Source: Alphaproteobacteria bacterium (GTDB lineage Bacteria > Pseudomonadota > Alphaproteobacteria > UBA8366). Taken from it: a stretch of DNA of 41,144 nucleotides. The stretch is from NCBI GenBank assembly GCA_050250795.1, contig JBFWNZ010000001.1, positions 1-41,144 of the forward strand, written 5' to 3'. A program made the translations under genes and the position numbers. The notes under the pieces are model-generated. The model worked only from the letters and a program-made list of their open reading frames with translations. It did no database searches and had not been told where the DNA came from. Shown piece by piece: positions 9,118 to 38,701 of this stretch; position 1 is the stretch's first letter, and every line of letters starts with the position of its first letter.

Positions 9118-9672
9118 TCAAAGTTTGGGCAGCGTCACGCCGGTCTGCTTCATGTATTTGCCGCCCCGGTCCGCATAGGACACCTCGCACGGGCTGTCGC
9201 CCTTGAGGAACAGGAACTGGCATGCGCCTTCGTTGGCGTAAATCTTGGCCGGCAGCGGTGTCGTATTCGAGAATTCCAACGTCACATGCCCTTCCCATTC
9301 CGGTTCCAGCGGCGTGACGTTCACGATGATGCCGCAACGGGCATAGGTCGATTTGCCGAGACAGATCACCAGCACGTCGCGGGGAATGCGGAAATACTCG
9401 ACCGTCCGCGCCAGCGCGAACGAGTTCGGCGGAATGATGCAGACCTCGGTGTCGCGTTCGACGAAACTCGCCGCCGAAAACGCCTTCGGATCGACGATGG
9501 CGTTGTCGACATTGGTGAAGATGCGGAATTCCCGGGCCGCCCGCGCGTCGTAGCCATAGGAGGACAGACCATAGGAGATGGTGCCCTCGCGATGCTGCCG
9601 GTCGACGAAGGGATCGATCATCCCCGTCGTCTGCGCCATGTCGCGAATCCAGTGGTCGGGCATTACGGACAT
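9118..9672 (-). CDS. dcd: dCTP deaminase
   Basis: [13 protein letters not shown]...[23 protein letters not shown]...[25 protein letters not shown] is a typical 184-aa Dcd. An alternative start lies 12 nt upstream at 9684. Confidence 0.9.
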
Positions 9673-9765
9673 CGGCCGCTCCATCCGGCGCGGTCGCGCC
9701 CGCGCGACCGCCGCATCGATATTTAGTAGCCGATGGAGGTGTTACCTACAAGGCAGGCCTGCGGC

Positions 9766-9939
9766 TTATTTATGGCGCGCCCCGCCGGACTCGGGATCGT
9801 CGTCGCGGGCCCGGCTCTGCGCCTTGCGTTTCTGGAGGTTGCGCCGAAGCTGTTCCGCCTGCCGCCGCTGCCGCTCGGCCTTTGCCGCTTCGCCGGCCGC
9901 CGTGAGCGTCGGCCGCCGATGCTCGTCCCGCCCCGCCAT
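9766..9939 (-). CDS. Small basic hypothetical protein (57 aa)
   Basis: My own translation gives MAGRDEHRRPTLTAAGEAAKAERQRRQAEQLRRNLQKRKAQSRARDDDPESGGARHK. A GGAGG sits 5 nt upstream of the ATG (plus-strand cctcc at 9945-9949). The ORF is below the track cutoff. Confidence 0.4.
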   Translation of the reverse strand: MAGRDEHRRPTLTAAGEAAKAERQRRQAEQLRRNLQKRKAQSRARDDDPESGGARHK

Positions 9940-10065
9940 TTCGCCTCCGTGAGTCGCACTCGCGTCACGGCGCGATCCTGCCGACGCGATTGCGGCAGCG
10001 CAAGACCGCGCACCTTCCTTGCAGGCCGCGCGTCACTGTGGCATACACCCGCCCGCGCATCCGGC

Positions 10066-10140
<75 letters not shown>

Positions 10141-10244
10141 TCTTTCCCGATATCCCCGCCGCATGACATACCCGCAATTGCCCGGACTTGTGCCACGCCG
10201 GGACGGCGCTTTAGGGTGAGGCTGGGGAGACACCGAAGGGTGCG

Positions 10245-11669
10245 ATGACCGATCCCGTTGCCGGCGGTCCGGCACAACCAGGCAAGATCGCGAGTGCGGC
10301 CAGCGCGCCGGCAGGCATGCCGACCGGCGGCCTTGCCGCGCAGGGACGCGCGCTGGAGGAGAAGCAGGCCTTTGCAGAGGCCGCGCAGCTCTACGCGCTC
10401 TGGACCGGCATGGCGCCGCGCGATCCTGCCGCCTGGGCCGCGCTGGGCCGGGCCGAAATGCGCTGCCTGCGCGGCCGGGCGGCCGCGGCAGCTTTGAGCG
10501 AAGCCGCGCGGCTGGCGCCACGCGCCTACGCCATCCATCGCGATCTGGCCGCCGTCCTGACCGCCATCGGCCGCGCCGCCGAAGGCCAAGCGATGCTGCG
10601 GGCCCATTTCGCACAGTTTCCGCTGCTCGCGCTGCCGAGCCAGGCGCCGGTCGACGCGCCGGCTATCCTCATTTTCCGCGGTTTCAGCGGTACGCGCGCC
10701 GTTCTGGTGCGCAGCCGCATGCATGGCACGCGCGCAATGTTGCGCGGGGGCCATATGTCGCTCGAAGGATTGCTGGATCAGGACCGCATGCGGTCCATCG
10801 AATATACCGTCGCCGGCAACAATCTGAATTCATCGCCGCCGCCCGCCGCCTCGGTGTGGTTCAACAGCATCGCCGACCCCGATCTCGAACGCGAGACGCT
10901 TCAGTCGCTGACGGATCATCTGGAGGCGACCGGGCGCGCCTGCGTGAACCCTCCGGCGCGGGTGCTCGCGACCACGCGCGACGGCAATGCCCGCCGGCTG
11001 GCGCGTATTCCGGACATGGTGGTGCCGCGGACCCTCCGCGTTCCCGTTGCCGGGCGACCCACCGCCGAAATTGCCGCCGAGATCGCCGAGCATGGCCTTA
11101 CTCCCCCGCTGGTCCTGCAACGGGCAGGGACCATACTGGCCGATGCGCCGGTGCTGGCGCGCAAACGCGACGACATCGACGCATTCATCGTCGCAAACGC
11201 GGGCGACGAGTTCATCTATGCCGCCACCTACATCGACAACCCATATCGCGACCGACTGTACAACCGGAAACGGATGTTCTTCATCGACGGCAAGCCTTAT
11301 CCCGCCGCCTCCCATCTCGACGAGGACTGGGCGGTGAAAAGTGCGAACCGTCGAAAGGTCATGGCCCCTCATGTCTGGATGATGGAGCAGGAGCAGGAAT
11401 TCCTGGTCGATCCCGAGGCGTCGATCGGCGGCCTTGCCTTCTCGACCCTCGCCGAACTGCCCGATGCCATCGGCCTCGACTTCTTCGGCGTCGACTTCTC
11501 CGTCCTGCCGGACGGACGGCCGCTCGTCTACGCCGTCGGCGCCGCGATGGAGCCGGGCTTCGACCAGCCGCGCAGTTTCCCCTATACGCGACCGCATCTG
11601 CAGCGTATCGCCCAGGCCTTCCGCACCATGCTCGCGACACGGGTCGCCCCGCGCCCTCCCCTGCGATAG
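10245..11669 (+). CDS. TPR-repeat protein with a C-terminal ATP-grasp-like (RimK/glutathione-synthetase-type) domain
   Basis: 474-aa ORF. The N-terminus has Ala/Leu-rich TPR-like helices (AFAEAAQLYALWTGMAPRDPAAWAALGRAE). The C-terminus has IGLDFFGVDFSVLPDGRPLVYAVGAAM, which resembles ATP-grasp ligase cores seen in TPR fusion proteins. Confidence 0.6.
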   Translation: MTDPVAGGPAQPGKIASAASAPAGMPTGGLAAQGRALEEKQAFAEAAQLYALWTGMAPRDPAAWAALGRAEMRCLRGRAAAAALSEAARLAPRAYAIHRDLAAVLTAIGRAAEGQAMLRAHFAQFPLLALPSQAPVDAPAILIFRGFSGTRAVLVRSRMHGTRAMLRGGHMSLEGLLDQDRMRSIEYTVAGNNLNSSPPPAASVWFNSIADPDLERETLQSLTDHLEATGRACVNPPARVLATTRDGNARRLARIPDMVVPRTLRVPVAGRPTAEIAAEIAEHGLTPPLVLQRAGTILADAPVLARKRDDIDAFIVANAGDEFIYAATYIDNPYRDRLYNRKRMFFIDGKPYPAASHLDEDWAVKSANRRKVMAPHVWMMEQEQEFLVDPEASIGGLAFSTLAELPDAIGLDFFGVDFSVLPDGRPLVYAVGAAMEPGFDQPRSFPYTRPHLQRIAQAFRTMLATRVAPRPPLR

Positions 11670-11758
11670 ATCGCCGCCCGAGCGGCGAAAGATCGTGCCG
11701 ATAGGCCCCCCGCCGCGTATCCTTTCGACCGGCACGCTACAGCTGCACAGGAGCCGGC

Positions 11759-20323: not shown

Positions 20324-20504
20324 GGGGCGATCCTCCGGTTGCGACGGCCTTTGCGGCCTTTCCGCCATTAACGCACAGGCCCCGGCCACCCGCCACCCGG
20401 CCGCCAAGGATGGCGGCCGCGCCGCGAACGCATGGCTCCGAGTCGACAATTAAAAATTGATCGATAAATTGCCATAATCTACTTTTAAGAAATGCTTCCG
20501 GCAC

Positions 20505-20532
20505 TTGAATTGCAGTATTTGTTCCCTATATG
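20505..20532 (+). promoter_or_regulatory. Putative sigma70-type promoter of the A-B-C cassette (TTGAAT - 16 nt - TATATG)
   Basis: Read from the sequence within the only strongly AT-rich intergenic stretch of the window (20445-20535). It is positioned about 28 nt upstream of the preferred A1 start at 20560. Confidence 0.35.
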
Positions 20533-20559
20533 TTCACGGCCACTTCCAGGAAAACCGCC

Positions 20560-21078
20560 ATGCCCGACACGATCCCACCGCGGCAACCCGGCTTCCGCGG
20601 CTATCTAGCCGAGCTGCGGGCCGATCCTGCCATCCCGTTCTGGCTGCGGGTTCTGTGCCTCCTGATGGCCGCCGCCATGCTGGTGGACGGCCTCATGCTG
20701 GTGGACTTTGCCGTCTTCCTCCGCCCGAGCCTGTCGCCCTGCCCAGGTTACTACCTGCCTTATTTCCTGCTGCCTAAGGGGCTGTCATGGGGCGTGATGA
20801 CGGCGAGCTACCTGTCGATTGCCTGTCTGCCTCCAACCCTTCGCTGGCGCCGCCCGATTATCCTTCTGGCCTGCCTCGCCGGCTGTTTCACGTTGCCTGC
20901 AATGCTTTTTTCCGAGATTTCTTTTTTCCTCACCCTGCTCTTCGATGTCTGGGACCCTCTTCCCAAAAGCTGCGATCTCCTTTTCAGAAGCCCTGCCCTC
21001 CTGCCCGTCGGTTCCATCGCACTGGTTCTGCTGCTCTTGTATTTCCAGGTCATTTTCCTGGTGGAGCGGAAACCATGA
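20560..21078 (+). CDS. Hypothetical 4-TM membrane protein (cassette protein A, copy 1)
   Basis: I chose the start at MPDTIPPRQPGFRGYLAEL, which aligns with the N-terminus of copy 2 (MSDILEPQRSRGFRGYLAEL) and has AGGA upstream. There are four hydrophobic segments. I recognise no known family. Confidence 0.7.
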   Translation: MPDTIPPRQPGFRGYLAELRADPAIPFWLRVLCLLMAAAMLVDGLMLVDFAVFLRPSLSPCPGYYLPYFLLPKGLSWGVMTASYLSIACLPPTLRWRRPIILLACLAGCFTLPAMLFSEISFFLTLLFDVWDPLPKSCDLLFRSPALLPVGSIALVLLLLYFQVIFLVERKP

Positions 21079-21686
21079 CTGCGCGTTGGTTGCCGTTTGG
21101 CAAGTTCCGTCCGCTGATCCGAACCCTCGCAGTCAAGATCGGGGTGAAAGTAGACCGGGTCATAACCGCCCTTTCGGACACCCCGTTCGTCAGGGTTTCG
21201 GCCAGGACCGTGTCAGCACTTCTCGGCTTCGTGATCCTCGCGCAGTCGGTCAACCTCCTGCTTACGGATATGGAGCCGCTGCGGCAGATTTATACAAATT
21301 CCGTCGATCACTGCCGCGATCAAAACCTCTCGGATTTCAGAATTTTACAGGTTGCATTCTGCATCGTCTTTCCTGTCGGATATTTCGTCCTGGCATTCTA
21401 TCCAACGAACCGACCAGAATGGCGCGCCGTCACCTGGTTTTCCACAGAAATCGGCCTTCTGTCTGCACCGGCTGCGTCCGTCGTGGATCTATTAATTCGT
21501 CTCAATTTAGACTGGCTTCTTATACGCGGAAACTGCGACCTACGACCGATATACGAATCCATCGCCCTCACGGTAAACCCGATCTTCTTTTTCTGCGTCC
21601 TGCTGATCCTGTCTATCCTGCTCTGGCACAGCAGGCGAGCGGATCGCAGAAGCCAGAAACAACATCAAGGATACAAAAATGGCTGA
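21075..21686 (+). CDS. Hypothetical 4-TM membrane protein (cassette protein B, copy 1)
   Basis: MTARWLPFGKFRPLIRTLAVKIGVKVDRVITALS... The ATG overlaps the A1 TGA (ATGA). It is homologous to residues from about 173 onward of the fused copy-2 protein. There are four hydrophobic segments and a basic C-terminal tail. Confidence 0.7.
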   Translation: MTARWLPFGKFRPLIRTLAVKIGVKVDRVITALSDTPFVRVSARTVSALLGFVILAQSVNLLLTDMEPLRQIYTNSVDHCRDQNLSDFRILQVAFCIVFPVGYFVLAFYPTNRPEWRAVTWFSTEIGLLSAPAASVVDLLIRLNLDWLLIRGNCDLRPIYESIALTVNPIFFFCVLLILSILLWHSRRADRRSQKQHQGYKNG

Positions 21687-22914
21687 TAAAAATTCAAATA
21701 TACCGGCTCCATCTGGAATCTTCGATATCCACGATGCTGCCGCGGCCGAAGCCGTCGCCTCACAACTTCCAGGTCGAGAAAATGGCCCTGCCGACGCCTA
21801 TCGTCACCTTCTCGGAGCTGCCGAGTTATCCCGCCAATATAAAGAAAGAACGGCAAGATTCATTCTCGATGCGAATGAACTTTTCTTCTTTGAAAGCAAG
21901 GAAGCAAAGGAGATGGATTACCACAACAACGCCATCGGCATCGAGATCGGCAAGACGGCGAAGAACTGGGACGAAGTGATTGCCATGAGCCGGGCTGCTA
22001 TCGACGCCGCCGGTATCGACGGCAAGGGAGACCGGCCCGACGCTGTGCGCTGGTTGCCGCCGGACCAGTGGCGAAAAAACCCGAAATACGAGCACGATCC
22101 GAAGCGGGAAATGCCGACGGAAGAGACCAACTGGTACACCAACCCCAACCGCCCCGACGGGATCGATTGGATCGGCGGCTATGTTCCGAATCCTTTGCCT
22201 AGGAAGCGGCTACCGGATATTCCGACCGATATGGCGCGTTCTCGGCGAGAAACGGTGCCGCTCGCGGCAATGACCGAGGCCGAGATGCGCCGCGCGATGA
22301 AAAGCGATGCCTATTGGACCGCAGGCCATCCCGAGCATCGCGCCGCGCAGCAGGCCGTCCGGGCATGGCACGACAACCGCTACGGCACCGCGCCGTCACC
22401 TCTCGACGCCGCCGGCCGGATGCGTCCGGTACCGGCCGCAGCACCGCATATCGCCCGGACCAGCGCGCGTGCCGATGCGTCGGCGCTCGCCTTGCCCCGG
22501 CGCATGGCGGCGGCTCAGCCCCCTGCGCCGGGTGGCCTGTTTACAAATGATGACATCCAGCAAAAGGCGACGCCGGACCAGGAGAACGCGCAGGCGTTGG
22601 ACCTGCTTTTGCGCTTCGCCCGGGACGCTCTGCGGAGCGGGGATGCCAGCGGCCTTCCCGACGCGGTGGACCGCGGCCTCGGCGGCCTGTTTCCCGCCAC
22701 CCCGCCCGGCCGGCCCGCGCCTTGGCGCCAGGCGGTGCAGGACACGATCAACGACCTCGCGGGCAGCGGCCGGCACGCAACGGCGGATGCCGAGCCCCTG
22801 CGCGACGACGGCGAGATCGGGCCCAGGACCGTCGCAGCCTTCGGCCGCACGCTGACCGGCGCCGGCCCAGACCGCTTCGTCCGGCGCCTCGCCCAGAATC
22901 TCGGATTTGCCTGA
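21679..22914 (+). CDS. Hypothetical soluble protein (cassette protein C, copy 1, full length): conserved N-terminal DAYRH/MDYHNN domain, Pro/Ala-rich linker, C-terminal peptidoglycan-binding-like motif
   Basis: 411-aa ORF with AGGA 7 nt upstream and an 8-nt overlap with B1. No signal peptide or TM segment is visible. The C-terminus DGEIGPRTVAAFGRTLT resembles the PG_binding_1 core (DGxxGPxTxxAxxxFQ). Confidence 0.75.
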   Translation: MADKNSNIPAPSGIFDIHDAAAAEAVASQLPGRENGPADAYRHLLGAAELSRQYKERTARFILDANELFFFESKEAKEMDYHNNAIGIEIGKTAKNWDEVIAMSRAAIDAAGIDGKGDRPDAVRWLPPDQWRKNPKYEHDPKREMPTEETNWYTNPNRPDGIDWIGGYVPNPLPRKRLPDIPTDMARSRRETVPLAAMTEAEMRRAMKSDAYWTAGHPEHRAAQQAVRAWHDNRYGTAPSPLDAAGRMRPVPAAAPHIARTSARADASALALPRRMAAAQPPAPGGLFTNDDIQQKATPDQENAQALDLLLRFARDALRSGDASGLPDAVDRGLGGLFPATPPGRPAPWRQAVQDTINDLAGSGRHATADAEPLRDDGEIGPRTVAAFGRTLTGAGPDRFVRRLAQNLGFA

Positions 22915-22921
22915 ACCGTCG

Positions 22922-22944
22922 CCCTCCCGGCTCCGCCGGGAGGG
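22922..22944 (+). terminator. GC-rich hairpin between cassette copies (CCCTCCCGG-ctccg-CCGGGAGGG), a possible attenuator or weak terminator
   Basis: A perfect 9-bp inverted repeat, read directly, lies 8 nt after the C1 stop. It is followed only by a weak T tract (ttcctcc), so termination efficiency is doubtful. Confidence 0.3.
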
Positions 22945-22974
22945 TTCCTCCGTTCCGACCCACGGACCTGCATC

Positions 22975-24102
22975 ATGAGCGATATCCTTGAACCGCAAAG
23001 AAGTCGCGGCTTCCGCGGCTATCTAGCCGAGTTGCGGGCCGATCCTGCCATCCCGTTCTGGCTGCGGGTTCTGTGCCTCTTGATGGCCGCCGCCATGCTG
23101 GTGGACGGCCTCATGCTGGTGGACTTTGCCGTCTTCCTCCGCCCGAGCCTGTCGCCCTGCCCAGGTTACTATCTGCTGTATTTCCTGCTGCCGAAGGGAC
23201 TTTCATGGGGCGTGATGACGGCGAGCTACCTGTCGATTGCCTGTCTGCCTCCGACCCTTCGCTGGCGCCGCCCGATAATCCTTCTGGCCTGTCTCGCCGG
23301 CTGCCTCGCGATGCCCGCGATATTTCTTTCCAACGTTCTTCTAATCGGCGCGCTTTTCAGTTCCGAGTATATGCTGCCCGACACTTGCGTGCTTTTGTTC
23401 AGAAGCCCCGCCCTGCTGTCCGTCAGCTTGATCGCGCTGGTCCTGCTGCTCCTCTATTTCCAGGTCATCTTCCTGGTGGAGCGGAAGCCATCGGCCGCGT
23501 ATCGGTTGCCGTCCCGCAAGCTCCATCCGCCGACCCGAAACCTCGCCGCCAGGATCGCAGTGCAGGCAGACCGGGTCATAACCGCCCTTTCGAACGCGCC
23601 CTACGTCAGGGTTGGCATCAGAACGGCGTCCGCGCTTCTCGGCTTCGCGAGCCTCGCTCAGTCGGTCAACATCCTGCTTACGGAGTTGGAACCGCTCCGG
23701 CAGATTTATACAGATATCATCGACCCATGCCTTAACCACGAGATCTCGGACTTCCGGATCCTACAGGTTGCCTTCAGCATCGTCTTGCTTGGCGGATATT
23801 TCGTCCTGGCATTCTATCCAACGAACCGACCGGAACGGCGCGCAGTCACCTGGCTCACCACAGAAATCGGGCTGTTATCCGCGCTGGCCGCGCTCGTCGC
23901 GAACCGGTTCGTTCGTCTCGATATTGAAGGGCTACATATACGTGAAGCTTGCAAGTTTCAACCAATCTACGAAACCATTTGTCTTACGATAAGCCCGATA
24001 TTCTTCTCCGTATCTCTGCTGATCCTGTTCGTCCTTCTCTGGCACAGCAGACGCACGGAACGCAGAACCCAACAATTTCAAGGAAACGAAAATGGCCGAT
24101 AA
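22975..24102 (+). CDS. Hypothetical 8-TM membrane protein (fused A-B, cassette copy 2)
   Basis: 375-aa ORF. Residues 1 to about 172 align with A1, and the remainder aligns with B1 (SAAYRLPSRKLHPPTRNLAARIAVQADRVITALS versus TARWLPFGKFRPLIRTLAVKIGVKVDRVITALS). Confidence 0.75.
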   Translation: MSDILEPQRSRGFRGYLAELRADPAIPFWLRVLCLLMAAAMLVDGLMLVDFAVFLRPSLSPCPGYYLLYFLLPKGLSWGVMTASYLSIACLPPTLRWRRPIILLACLAGCLAMPAIFLSNVLLIGALFSSEYMLPDTCVLLFRSPALLSVSLIALVLLLLYFQVIFLVERKPSAAYRLPSRKLHPPTRNLAARIAVQADRVITALSNAPYVRVGIRTASALLGFASLAQSVNILLTELEPLRQIYTDIIDPCLNHEISDFRILQVAFSIVLLGGYFVLAFYPTNRPERRAVTWLTTEIGLLSALAALVANRFVRLDIEGLHIREACKFQPIYETICLTISPIFFSVSLLILFVLLWHSRRTERRTQQFQGNENGR

Positions 24103-24625
24103 GACTTTCGAGACAGCGACCCCATCCGGCATCTGGGGCATCAAAAGGGCTGCCGAGGCCGCAGCGGTCGCGTCGCAGTTGCCGGGCCAACAAAGCGGCC
24201 CTGCGGACGCCTATCGTCACTTGCTTGGATCCGCTGAGTTAACCCGAAGAAAGGGTGAGTATCTCGCGCGGATCATCCTCGATTTGAATGAGATCATCTC
24301 TCTCGAAAGCAGGGAAGCAAAGGAGATGGATTACCACAACAACGCCATCGGCATCGAGATTGGCAAGACCGCCAAAAGCTGGGGCGAGGTTATCGTGAGG
24401 AGTCGAGCCGCCATCGACGCCGCCAGTATCGACGGCAAGGGAGACCGGCCCGACGCTGTGCGTTGGTTGCCGCCGGACCAGTGGCGGAAAAACCCGAAAT
24501 ACGAGCACGATCCGAAGCGGGAAATGCCGACGGAAGAGACCAACTGGTACACCAACCCCGGCCGTCCCAACGGCATCGACTGGATCGGCGGCGGCATTCC
24601 GAACCCTCTCGCCCGGAACAAATGA
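24092..24625 (+). CDS. Hypothetical soluble protein (cassette protein C, copy 2, N-terminal domain only; possibly a truncated derivative)
   Basis: 177-aa ORF with AGGA upstream and an 11-nt overlap with the fused A-B gene. It aligns with C1 residues 1 to about 175 and includes a 130/132-nt near-identical block. It ends where C1 continues. Confidence 0.7.
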   Translation: MADKTFETATPSGIWGIKRAAEAAAVASQLPGQQSGPADAYRHLLGSAELTRRKGEYLARIILDLNEIISLESREAKEMDYHNNAIGIEIGKTAKSWGEVIVRSRAAIDAASIDGKGDRPDAVRWLPPDQWRKNPKYEHDPKREMPTEETNWYTNPGRPNGIDWIGGGIPNPLARNK

Positions 24626-24773
24626 GGGGATTTGGACCCTTACCGGATACTTCGGCCCATATCGCCATTCCCCCAAGAACGCCGCCGACGTCTCGCCCGG
24701 CCTCTCGGCTTCGCGTAAGCGAACGGCAATGCGGCGGGACGTCCCGATGTCGCGCGCGGCCCGCCGCGATGCC

Positions 24774-38605: not shown

Positions 38606-38701
38606 TGGCGGAAGAGAGTGGGAGTCGAACCCACCAGGGACGTCTGACGCCCCTCAGCGGTTTTGAAGACCGAGCGCCCCACCGGGGTGCGTTTCCCTTC
38701 C
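38606..38701 (-). tRNA. selC: tRNA-Sec (selenocysteine tRNA, anticodon UCA)
   Basis: The minus-strand sequence is GGAAGGGA-AA-...-CGGT-CTTCAAA-ACCG-...-GGGGCG-TCAGA-CGTCCC-...-GTGGG-TTCGACT-CCCAC-TCTCTTCC-G-CCA. It has an 8-bp acceptor stem, a UCA anticodon, a long variable arm and a length of 96 nt. It is collinear with E. coli selC as I recall it. Confidence 0.8.

Follow-up and report, generated by a model that had tools for sequence, protein, structure and literature searches.

The DNA analysed here is a stretch of 41,144 nucleotides (the window), positions 1 to 41,144 of contig JBFWNZ010000001.1, from the metagenome-assembled genome (MAG) of an alphaproteobacterium of the UBA8366 lineage. 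Its subject is C1, a protein of 411 residues encoded in a low-GC island which is flanked by a PrpD-family gene and an enoyl-CoA hydratase gene. The island holds a cassette that has been duplicated in tandem over about 2.4 kb (20589-22235 against 23007-24665), of which the first copy consists of genes A, B and C1 and the second of a fused AB gene and C2. The features of the cassette are as follows.

20450..24700, unstranded: low-GC island of about 4.2 kb containing the entire duplicated cassette
20530..21078, + strand: gene A, a 182-residue polytopic membrane protein with about four hydrophobic segments, without family, candidate immunity component
21075..21686, + strand: gene B, a 203-residue polytopic membrane protein, candidate immunity component
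21679..22914, + strand: C1, 411 residues
21679..22218, + strand: C1 N-terminal domain (residues 1-180), BteO-family/DUF6973, with key residues R42, H43, N66, E67, D80, N83 and N84
22261..22428, + strand: C1 mid-region (residues ~195-250), a helical module with the pattern AYxxxGHPEHxxxxxxVxxWxxxxYGxxPxPxDAxGR
22429..22686, + strand: C1 Ala/Pro/Arg-rich linker, predicted disordered or of low confidence (predicted local distance difference test, pLDDT, below 50 at residues 254-299), GC 0.71-0.73
22687..22914, + strand: C1 tail (residues ~337-411 plus the stop codon), divergent PG_binding_3-like, VQDTINDL ... DDGEIGPRTVAAFGRTL ... RFVRRLAQNLGFA
22975..24102, + strand: gene AB of the second cassette copy, 375 residues, an A-like half fused to a B-like half, candidate immunity protein for C2
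24092..24625, + strand: C2, 177 residues, a domain-only paralogue of C1 with a complete DUF6973 domain and neither mid-region nor tail

The genes of each copy are tightly packed: the TGA of A overlaps the ATG of B (ATGA), the stop codon of B overlaps the start of C1 by 8 nucleotides, and the start of C2 overlaps the stop of AB. By analogy with AB, the true start of A may be M11 at 20560. The open reading frame (ORF) of C1 is preceded by an in-frame stop with no other start codon in between, so that the upstream extension which an earlier note on this DNA, made from the sequence alone, had raised as a caveat is not possible. The highest Kyte-Doolittle mean over 19 residues is 0.69 for C1 and 0.51 for C2, against 2.6-2.85 for A, B and AB; C1 and C2 thus have no hydrophobic stretch and therefore neither a signal peptide nor a transmembrane helix, in line with what the same note had seen in C1.

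By profile score, the membership of C1 and C2 in the DUF6973 family (PF22322) is secure, with 40.4 and 42 bits respectively against a gathering cutoff of 27 bits, and the family name given in the earlier note was thus correct. The N-terminal stretch that the two proteins had been said to have in common amounts to 177 residues, which align without gaps and end to end over C2 with 136 identities (77%; BLASTP E=9e-96), and this likeness is not due to chance because it forms part of the tandem duplication. Among the segments quoted as invariant, GPADAYRHLLG, DGKGDRPDAVRWLPPDQWRKNPKYEHDPKREMPTEETNWYTNP and GIDWIGG show no difference between the copies, and ESKEAKEMDYHNNAIGIEIGKTAK differs once (ESK in C1, ESR in C2). 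The described spacing also holds, with D39-A-Y-R-H43 followed after 35 residues by M79-D-Y-H-N-N-A-I-G. The dN/dS ratio (nonsynonymous to synonymous substitution rate) between C1 and C2 is 0.22 at a dS of 0.72, and selection has therefore maintained C2.

The Pfam model covers only residues ~22-98 of C1, and the unit conserved in its clade comprises about 170 residues, with four long helices first and then a Trp-rich beta/loop subdomain (WLPPDQWRKNPK...NW). The AlphaFold2 model of the N-terminal domain has a pLDDT of 90.7 and a predicted template modelling score (pTM) of 0.88. An exhaustive HMMER search over 1.84 billion representative proteins returns 2,729 clusters at E<=1e-3, of which 416 reach E<=1e-10. 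Counted over 121 aligned relatives and in C1 numbering, G36, D39, A40, R42, H43 and D80 are invariant, and E67 (120/121), M79, N83 (118/121) and N84 (119/121) are conserved in at least 90%. The motif residues, R-H in helix 2, E at the end of helix 2 and D..NN in helix 3, are all kept in C1 and C2. No paper naming DUF6973 or PF22322 was found in the literature searched, the N-terminal domain has no tblastn match among the plasmids of PLSDB or the phages of INPHARED, and C1 and C2 match none of the PADLOC defence systems. Foldseek comparison of the full-length and N-terminal-domain models of C1 with the Protein Data Bank (PDB) returned no known housekeeping fold, a possibility named in the earlier note, and nothing significant; Bcl-2/BAK-like and HIV capsid matches (probability <=0.23, template modelling (TM) score <0.26) were discarded as noise. 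Against viral models the best matches are phage DUF6973 proteins with TM-scores of 0.52-0.62.

When the family profile is compared with all PDB sequences it finds a single entry, 9uu0, with an E-value of 1.1e-3 for a profile of 7 sequences and 1.3e-6 for one of 122 sequences. This entry is a maltose-binding protein (MBP) fusion of a 'Bacteroides fragilis T6SS effector', BteO, a characterised member which the earlier note had missed. In the reciprocal direction the aligned 82-residue segment of BteO matches the Pfam DUF6973 model with 50.4 bits (E=2e-13), which is stronger than the profile match to 9uu0 and makes BteO a member of the family. BteO and BtiO are an effector-immunity pair of the GA3 type VI secretion system (T6SS) of B. 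fragilis (PDB 9UU0; He et al., PNAS 2025, PMC12541434). BteO acts in a T6SS-dependent manner, its toxicity is confined to the periplasm, and it causes elongation, blebbing and lysis. The purified protein showed no peptidoglycan hydrolase, sacculus-degrading or amidase activity in vitro, its expression altered the muropeptide profile in vivo, and several OmpA proteins are its binding partners through their OmpA-C-like domains (PMC12541434). Its authors presented it as a unique protein that has no homologue of known function. Alanine substitution of any of six residues (R143A, H144A, H167A, E168A, D187A, D191A) abolishes both toxicity and OmpA binding (PMC12541434), and these residues correspond to the family alignment as follows.

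BteO R143, C1 R42: R in 121/121
BteO H144, C1 H43: H in 121/121
BteO H167, C1 N66: H in 93 and N in 17 of 121
BteO E168, C1 E67: E in 120/121
BteO D187, C1 A76: variable column
BteO D191, C1 D80: D in 121/121

C1 thus has four of the six residues that BteO needs for toxicity, and these four are nearly invariant throughout the family. BteO and C1 have in common a helical core with the pattern xAxRH ... (H/N)E ... D..NN.iG, and both have an immunity-type gene next to them. They differ in the order of their parts: in BteO an N-terminal transmembrane/loading region precedes a C-terminal toxin domain (residues 83 to the end), whereas C1 carries the domain at its extreme N-terminus without a transmembrane segment and continues into the additional Trp-rich subdomain, the mid-region and the PG_binding_3-like tail. 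BteO is also T6SS cargo, while no T6SS lies near C1 on the 41-kb contig.

Other members of the family (survey loci are labelled L and proteins P) indicate how such a domain may leave the cell. Five proteins of 843-1189 residues combine DUF6973 with RTX repeats (P0129, P0133, P0135, P0145, P0154). RTX repeats mark substrates of the type I secretion system (T1SS). In L010 a gene for a T1SS membrane-fusion protein, with E=1.4e-40 to MFP/HlyD structures, lies upstream of the partner gene. Two Lysobacter proteins (P0030, P0034) join DUF6973 to an XVIPCD with a Gln-rich tail; XVIPCD is a signal of about 120 residues that binds VirD4 of the bacteria-killing type IV secretion system X-T4SS, whose effector (X-Tfe) genes 'always' have an immunity gene upstream of them as a partner (PMC8740702). 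C1 resembles an X-Tfe in its N-terminal toxin domain, C-terminal delivery or auxiliary region, lack of a signal peptide and inhibitor gene directly upstream in the same operon. It differs in that A and B are polytopic and not lipoproteins, and in that X-T4SS effectors have been reported in Xanthomonadales, Burkholderiales and Neisseriales, whereas the host of C1 is an alphaproteobacterial MAG. C1 has no Pfam match to XVIPCD (PF20410) and no Gln-rich tail, nor does it have a Pfam match to HemolysinCabind.

In the endosymbiont of Acanthamoeba sp. UWC8, LysM is joined to DUF6973 in two proteins of 1104 and 663 residues which lie in one island (L041:3638-11992). This island is flanked by an integrase and transposases, and a gene for Imm11 (PF07791), an immunity family of polymorphic toxins, is located directly upstream of the second copy. 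P0148 (2,140 residues) consists of a SecA-DEAD-like/helicase region, LysM and a C-terminal DUF6973, and recalls the 'polyvalent proteins' of phages and conjugative elements. In a Dongiaceae MAG (L039:7438-16584) the DUF6973 gene lies between SU10-type portal and major capsid/adaptor genes of a podovirus-like prophage. In L024 and L025 (~9400-11700) it has a partner with four transmembrane segments upstream and, directly downstream, an ORF that resembles T7 gp11 by eye. The members located in phages may be virion-associated or morons. The missing signal peptide of C1 is explained by these relatives, because their domain is joined to XVIPCD, RTX or LysM modules or lies in prophages, and the dedicated export route that the earlier note had called for is found in the family as a C-terminal XVIPCD or RTX region or as T6SS cargo status. 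On these architectures, DUF6973 appears to behave like a polymorphic-toxin module that has been recruited by several delivery systems.

Beyond its toxin-like domain C1 continues into the mid-region, which is common to many alphaproteobacterial DUF6973 proteins (tblastn matches in L012, L011, L004, L005, L023 and L008; alignment with P0002), is modelled with a pLDDT of ~90 and has a weak match to phrog_3742 (E=0.0054). Most relatives with this mid-region end in an unannotated twofold motif, 'GGPVxVRxHxRxGxxVxxHxRSxP', which is found in P0002, P0005, P0012, P0014 and P0114 and in L011, L012, L017, L020, L026, L027, L030, L031, L032 and L034 and could be a secretion or packaging signal. C1 keeps only a degenerate trace of it (APHIARTSARAD...) and instead runs into the linker and a tail of about 75 residues. 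For this tail the earlier note had proposed the core motif of PG_binding_1; the sequence it quoted, ADAEPLRDDGEIGPRTVAAFGRTL, is present at residues 370-393 and belongs to a peptidoglycan-binding-type module, but this is better described as PG_binding_3-like. PG_binding_1 (PF01471; cutoff 23 bits) finds no match in C1 at E<=1 and none in the tail at E<=10.

A clear homologue of the tail is the end of a 540-residue protein of Magnetospirillum sp. UT-4 (35% identity over 110 residues, tblastn E=7e-11), which has the same succession of DUF6973, mid-region and tail. The UT-4 tail comprises two repeats and passes the PG_binding_3 (PF09374) cutoff of 24.6 bits with 27.1 bits, with only 16.3 bits for PG_binding_1. 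A profile of three tail sequences matches the PG_binding_3 proteins 6V3Z (E=2.4e-5) and 6V40, which presumably contain the peptidoglycan-recognition domain of TtsA-type muramidases. Both entries were deposited with a paper on the muramidase TtsA (eLife 2020, PMC6996933). They have the core 'LQ..LN ... DG.IGP.T..AL' in common with the C1/UT-4 tail profile; in C1 the module differs in that it sits on a non-GH108, apparently non-enzymatic domain and has a sub-threshold score. It is concluded, by transitive evidence through the UT-4 homologue, that the tail of C1 is a divergent PG_binding_3-like module.

The upstream partners A, B and AB match no Pfam, NCBIfam, PADLOC or PHROG family, OmpA families included, and give only sub-threshold matches driven by transmembrane segments. 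SLATT-like matches of AB (PADLOC RTasSLATT, E=1.3e-3; NCBIfam SLATT_5, E=0.034) lie far under the cutoffs and fall on transmembrane segments, and the matches of B to DUF2231 and AmaP are likewise sub-threshold. A is 83% identical to the N-terminal half of AB and B is 64% identical to its C-terminal half, and the similarity between A and B themselves is not significant. A, B and both halves of AB each have one Cys in predicted loops 1 and 3 (SPCPGYY and KSCDLL in A, DHCRDQ and GNCDLR in B), which are kept between the copies. These Cys pairs suggest a periplasm-facing disulfide and a common design with four transmembrane segments for A and B.

Upstream partners were also surveyed across 38 other DUF6973 loci. 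Immediately upstream of DUF6973, the commonest co-directional partner is a protein of about 150-180 residues with one N-terminal transmembrane helix and a domain that ends in C-x13-16-C; it matches no Pfam family and is probably a new immunity family for BteO-like toxins. Its domain spans about 120 residues, and examples are found at L002:7509-7967, L004:7448-7924, L007:9313-9870, L009:2932-3399, L010:1505-1939, L012:9387-9890, L014:2178-2516, L026:9379-9864 and others. The remaining types are a lipoprotein in Lysobacter and a small protein with three to four transmembrane segments in L006, L022, L024, L025, L028 and L037. A likeness of B to the four-transmembrane partners of L024/L025 that was noticed by eye is not significant (E=0.15 in a database of 10 sequences). 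A partner whose position is conserved and whose sequence is not is typical of immunity genes.

The two copies of the cassette differ unevenly along their length. The arms are nearly identical, with a proportion of synonymous differences (pS) of 0.04-0.2 in the 5' part of A and the 3' part of C, and enclose a divergent block with pS of 0.4-0.7 that runs from the 3' end of A through the whole of B into C, where it takes in the first ~100 codons. This divergent stretch of C contains the helices which in BteO make up the binding groove. Local dN/dS values reach ~1.1-1.4 in codons 121-150 of A (predicted third transmembrane segment to loop 3) and at the beginning of B, in its first 30 codons. Over the whole genes, dN/dS between the copies amounts to 0.43 (A), 0.48 (B) and 0.22 (C). 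Both copies are thus maintained by selection, which for C is purifying. The co-varying A/B/C block resembles a toxin-immunity specificity unit. The earlier suggestion that A and B export C1 finds nothing that points to a transporter; immunity fits better because of gene order, translational coupling, co-duplication and co-divergence, and A, B and AB probably serve in immunity and not in export.

The base composition sets the cassette apart from its surroundings, since the island genes have a GC content of 0.53-0.60 and a third-position GC content (GC3) of 0.62-0.74, compared with ~0.67 and 0.86-0.92 for native genes. Within C1 the N-terminal domain has GC and GC3 values of 0.556 and 0.62, and the last 146 codons have native-like values of 0.73 and 0.84. 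A break this sharp inside one gene points to a chimeric history, and suggests that recombination joined a toxin/immunity block of recent acquisition to a C-terminal module that was already resident or has ameliorated.

In the best explanation of the locus, the cassette is a horizontally acquired, tandemly duplicated immunity-toxin locus and C1 is an antibacterial BteO-family effector with a periplasmic OmpA/Pal target, a tail that holds peptidoglycan, and A and B as its immunity proteins; the probability of this explanation as a whole is put at about 0.6. It builds on what is observed directly, that is family membership, residue conservation, architecture, duplication, selection and composition. 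It is proposed that the N-terminal helical domain of C1 would be the toxic module and, by homology to BteO, would act in the periplasm of a target Gram-negative cell. There R42/H43, E67 and D80 would line a groove that binds the OmpA-C-like domains by which OmpA/Pal-type proteins are anchored to peptidoglycan. With these proteins seized, the outer membrane would lose its connection to the wall and the envelope would fail, while the PG_binding_3-like tail would keep the toxin on the sacculus. The family would be delivered by one-step or contact-dependent machines, namely the T6SS in Bacteroides, the X-T4SS through XVIPCD in Lysobacter and the T1SS through RTX elsewhere, and the machine that delivers C1 would be encoded elsewhere in the genome. 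A and B, and AB in the second copy, would be the cognate immunity proteins, the copies having diverged in the block that presumably determines specificity. Toxicity in the periplasm, an OmpA-type target, peptidoglycan binding by the tail, immunity by A and B and the export of C1 are here extrapolated from one characterised homologue and from context. What is new about C1 and C2 is their setting, which combines a toxin at the N-terminus and a PG_binding_3-like tail with orphan polytopic partners, in a duplicated island of low GC that lies in a metabolic neighbourhood with no visible secretion system.

Several results weigh against this explanation. Experiments on DUF6973 proteins are confined to BteO, which is not proteobacterial, and the homology to BteO is limited to about 75 residues of the helical core. 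Two of its six essential residues are replaced in C1, by N66 and A76, a deviation that is also found in C2, and 9uu0 was not returned by Foldseek for either C1 model from a library that may not contain this entry. BtiO is a soluble periplasmic mimic of OmpA-C, whereas A and B are orphan polytopic membrane proteins. AB finds only itself among 5.8 billion proteins, and by tblastn none of A, B and AB is related to the partners at the 38 other DUF6973 loci. The C1 tail on its own reaches only 15.5 bits (E=0.02) for PG_binding_3, its best match but one below the cutoff; it matches no peptidoglycan-binding structure, and its motif region (residues 365-393) is modelled by AlphaFold at a pLDDT below 50. 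Finally, no secretion-system genes, those of a T6SS included, are found among the 30 genes scanned on the 41-kb contig.

The main mechanistic rival is a catalytic site made up of R-H, E and D, and the main contextual rival is a gate formed by A and B. An unrecognised envelope enzyme, metal-dependent or acid-base in mechanism and modifying peptidoglycan or lipoproteins, could use the tail to target its substrate as muramidases do, and the invariant R42, H43 and D80 and near-invariant E67 and N83/N84 over the 121 sequences, most of them common with a Bacteroidota member, do look like an active site. The changed muropeptide profile on BteO expression in vivo (PMC12541434), the fusion of the domain to LysM and PG_binding_3-like modules that are typical of wall enzymes, and the deposition of 6V3Z/6V40 with a muramidase paper all speak for such a function, which is nonetheless considered unlikely: purified BteO neither degrades sacculi nor acts as an amidase, its binding to OmpA is mediated by these very residues (PMC12541434), and neither C1 model resembles any hydrolase fold in the PDB by Foldseek. 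That A and B are instead a holin-like or inner-membrane gate which takes C1 to the periplasm of its producer, as in a type 10-like lysis/secretion cassette, is improbable. It would account for an effector without a signal peptide next to two small, polytopic and translationally coupled proteins, for a tail that resembles the PG_binding_3 domain of entries from the paper on secretion-associated TtsA, and for the small proteins with three to four transmembrane segments directly upstream in six other loci (L006, L022, L024, L025, L028, L037). A and B, however, match no holin or transporter family and C1 has no recognisable hydrolase domain or fold, while genuine T1SS or T4SS signals are present in members of the family. 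The upstream partner in most relatives is moreover a single-transmembrane or lipoprotein periplasmic protein, in Lysobacter in the position of the X-T4SS immunity gene (X-Tfi), and B co-diverges with the groove-forming part of C as expected of a binding partner.

Two further accounts concern the origin of the island. It may be a remnant of phage DNA in which C is associated with the virion or with lysis and serves to loosen the envelope for DNA injection or for release, not as a weapon against other bacteria, which would agree with the DUF6973 gene between portal and capsid genes of an SU10-like prophage, with the gp11-like neighbour by eye in L024/L025, and with the phage proteins among the best viral fold matches and the weak PHROG match of the mid-region. 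This is judged very unlikely, since no phage, integrase or transposase gene occurs among the contig genes scanned, tblastn finds no match in 50,697 phage records, and duplication together with immunity-like partners is typical of toxin loci. Hardly credible is the view that the cassette is decaying junk, with C2 a truncated pseudogene and the C1 tail a read-through into GC-rich DNA. C2 does end at a 17-nucleotide indel with the duplication stopping ~40 nucleotides later, and the tail lies far from the N-terminal domain in GC and is modelled with low confidence. The low dN/dS between C1 and C2 with all key residues intact stands against decay, as do the protein-level homologue of the tail in UT-4, with the same architecture and E=7e-11, and its GC3 of 0.84, which is typical of coding sequence here. 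A more far-reaching form of the preferred OmpA/Pal reading, in which DUF6973 would seize OmpA/Pal across bacteria independently of any delivery machine, with A and B as orphan inner-membrane proteins of four helices that provide immunity, or gate and antidote at once, in a previously unseen way, and C1 would be a self-contained, peptidoglycan-tethered module that needs no large secretion machine, is regarded as rather unlikely.

Two minor features adjoin the cassette.

20443..20478, + strand: putative promoter, two overlapping sigma-70-like matches at the AT-rich junction just upstream of gene A
24626..24680, + strand: remnant of the duplicated unit beyond the C2 stop, from the DNA alignment

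The GC content falls to 0.49 at 20400-20500, and positions 20443-20478 are a possible cassette promoter, for which the evidence is weak because two matches are found where 1.2 are expected by chance. At the other end the C2 stop codon falls within the indel relative to C1, and past it about 25 nucleotides of residual homology can be aligned. The island has neither a tRNA nor a mobile-element gene at its boundaries, and the other 30 contig genes scanned are housekeeping or catabolic. There are two MmgE/PrpD-family genes on the contig (18956-20449 and 29773-31275, both on the - strand), both near CoA-transferase, hydratase or aldolase-type genes, and tRNA genes for SeC (38606-38701) and Thr (10066-10140). 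These surroundings are an ordinary catabolic context that is unrelated to the C1 finding.

If the BteO-family reading of C1 is true, DUF6973 with its at least 2,700 clusters at 50% identity would gain a function from a single structure-function study of 2025. Killing by the targeting of OmpA, apparently without enzymatic activity, would then not be limited to Bacteroides but would be a widespread polymorphic-toxin module that has been recruited by the T1SS, T4SS, T6SS and phages. The near-invariant R-H/E/D constellation would allow the claim of a 'non-enzymatic' mechanism to be tested directly in distant homologues. The family would also provide a natural experiment in the evolution of immunity, in which at least three unrelated types of partner, an OmpA mimic, a transmembrane-anchored Cys-pair domain and polytopic proteins, would serve the same toxin domain.

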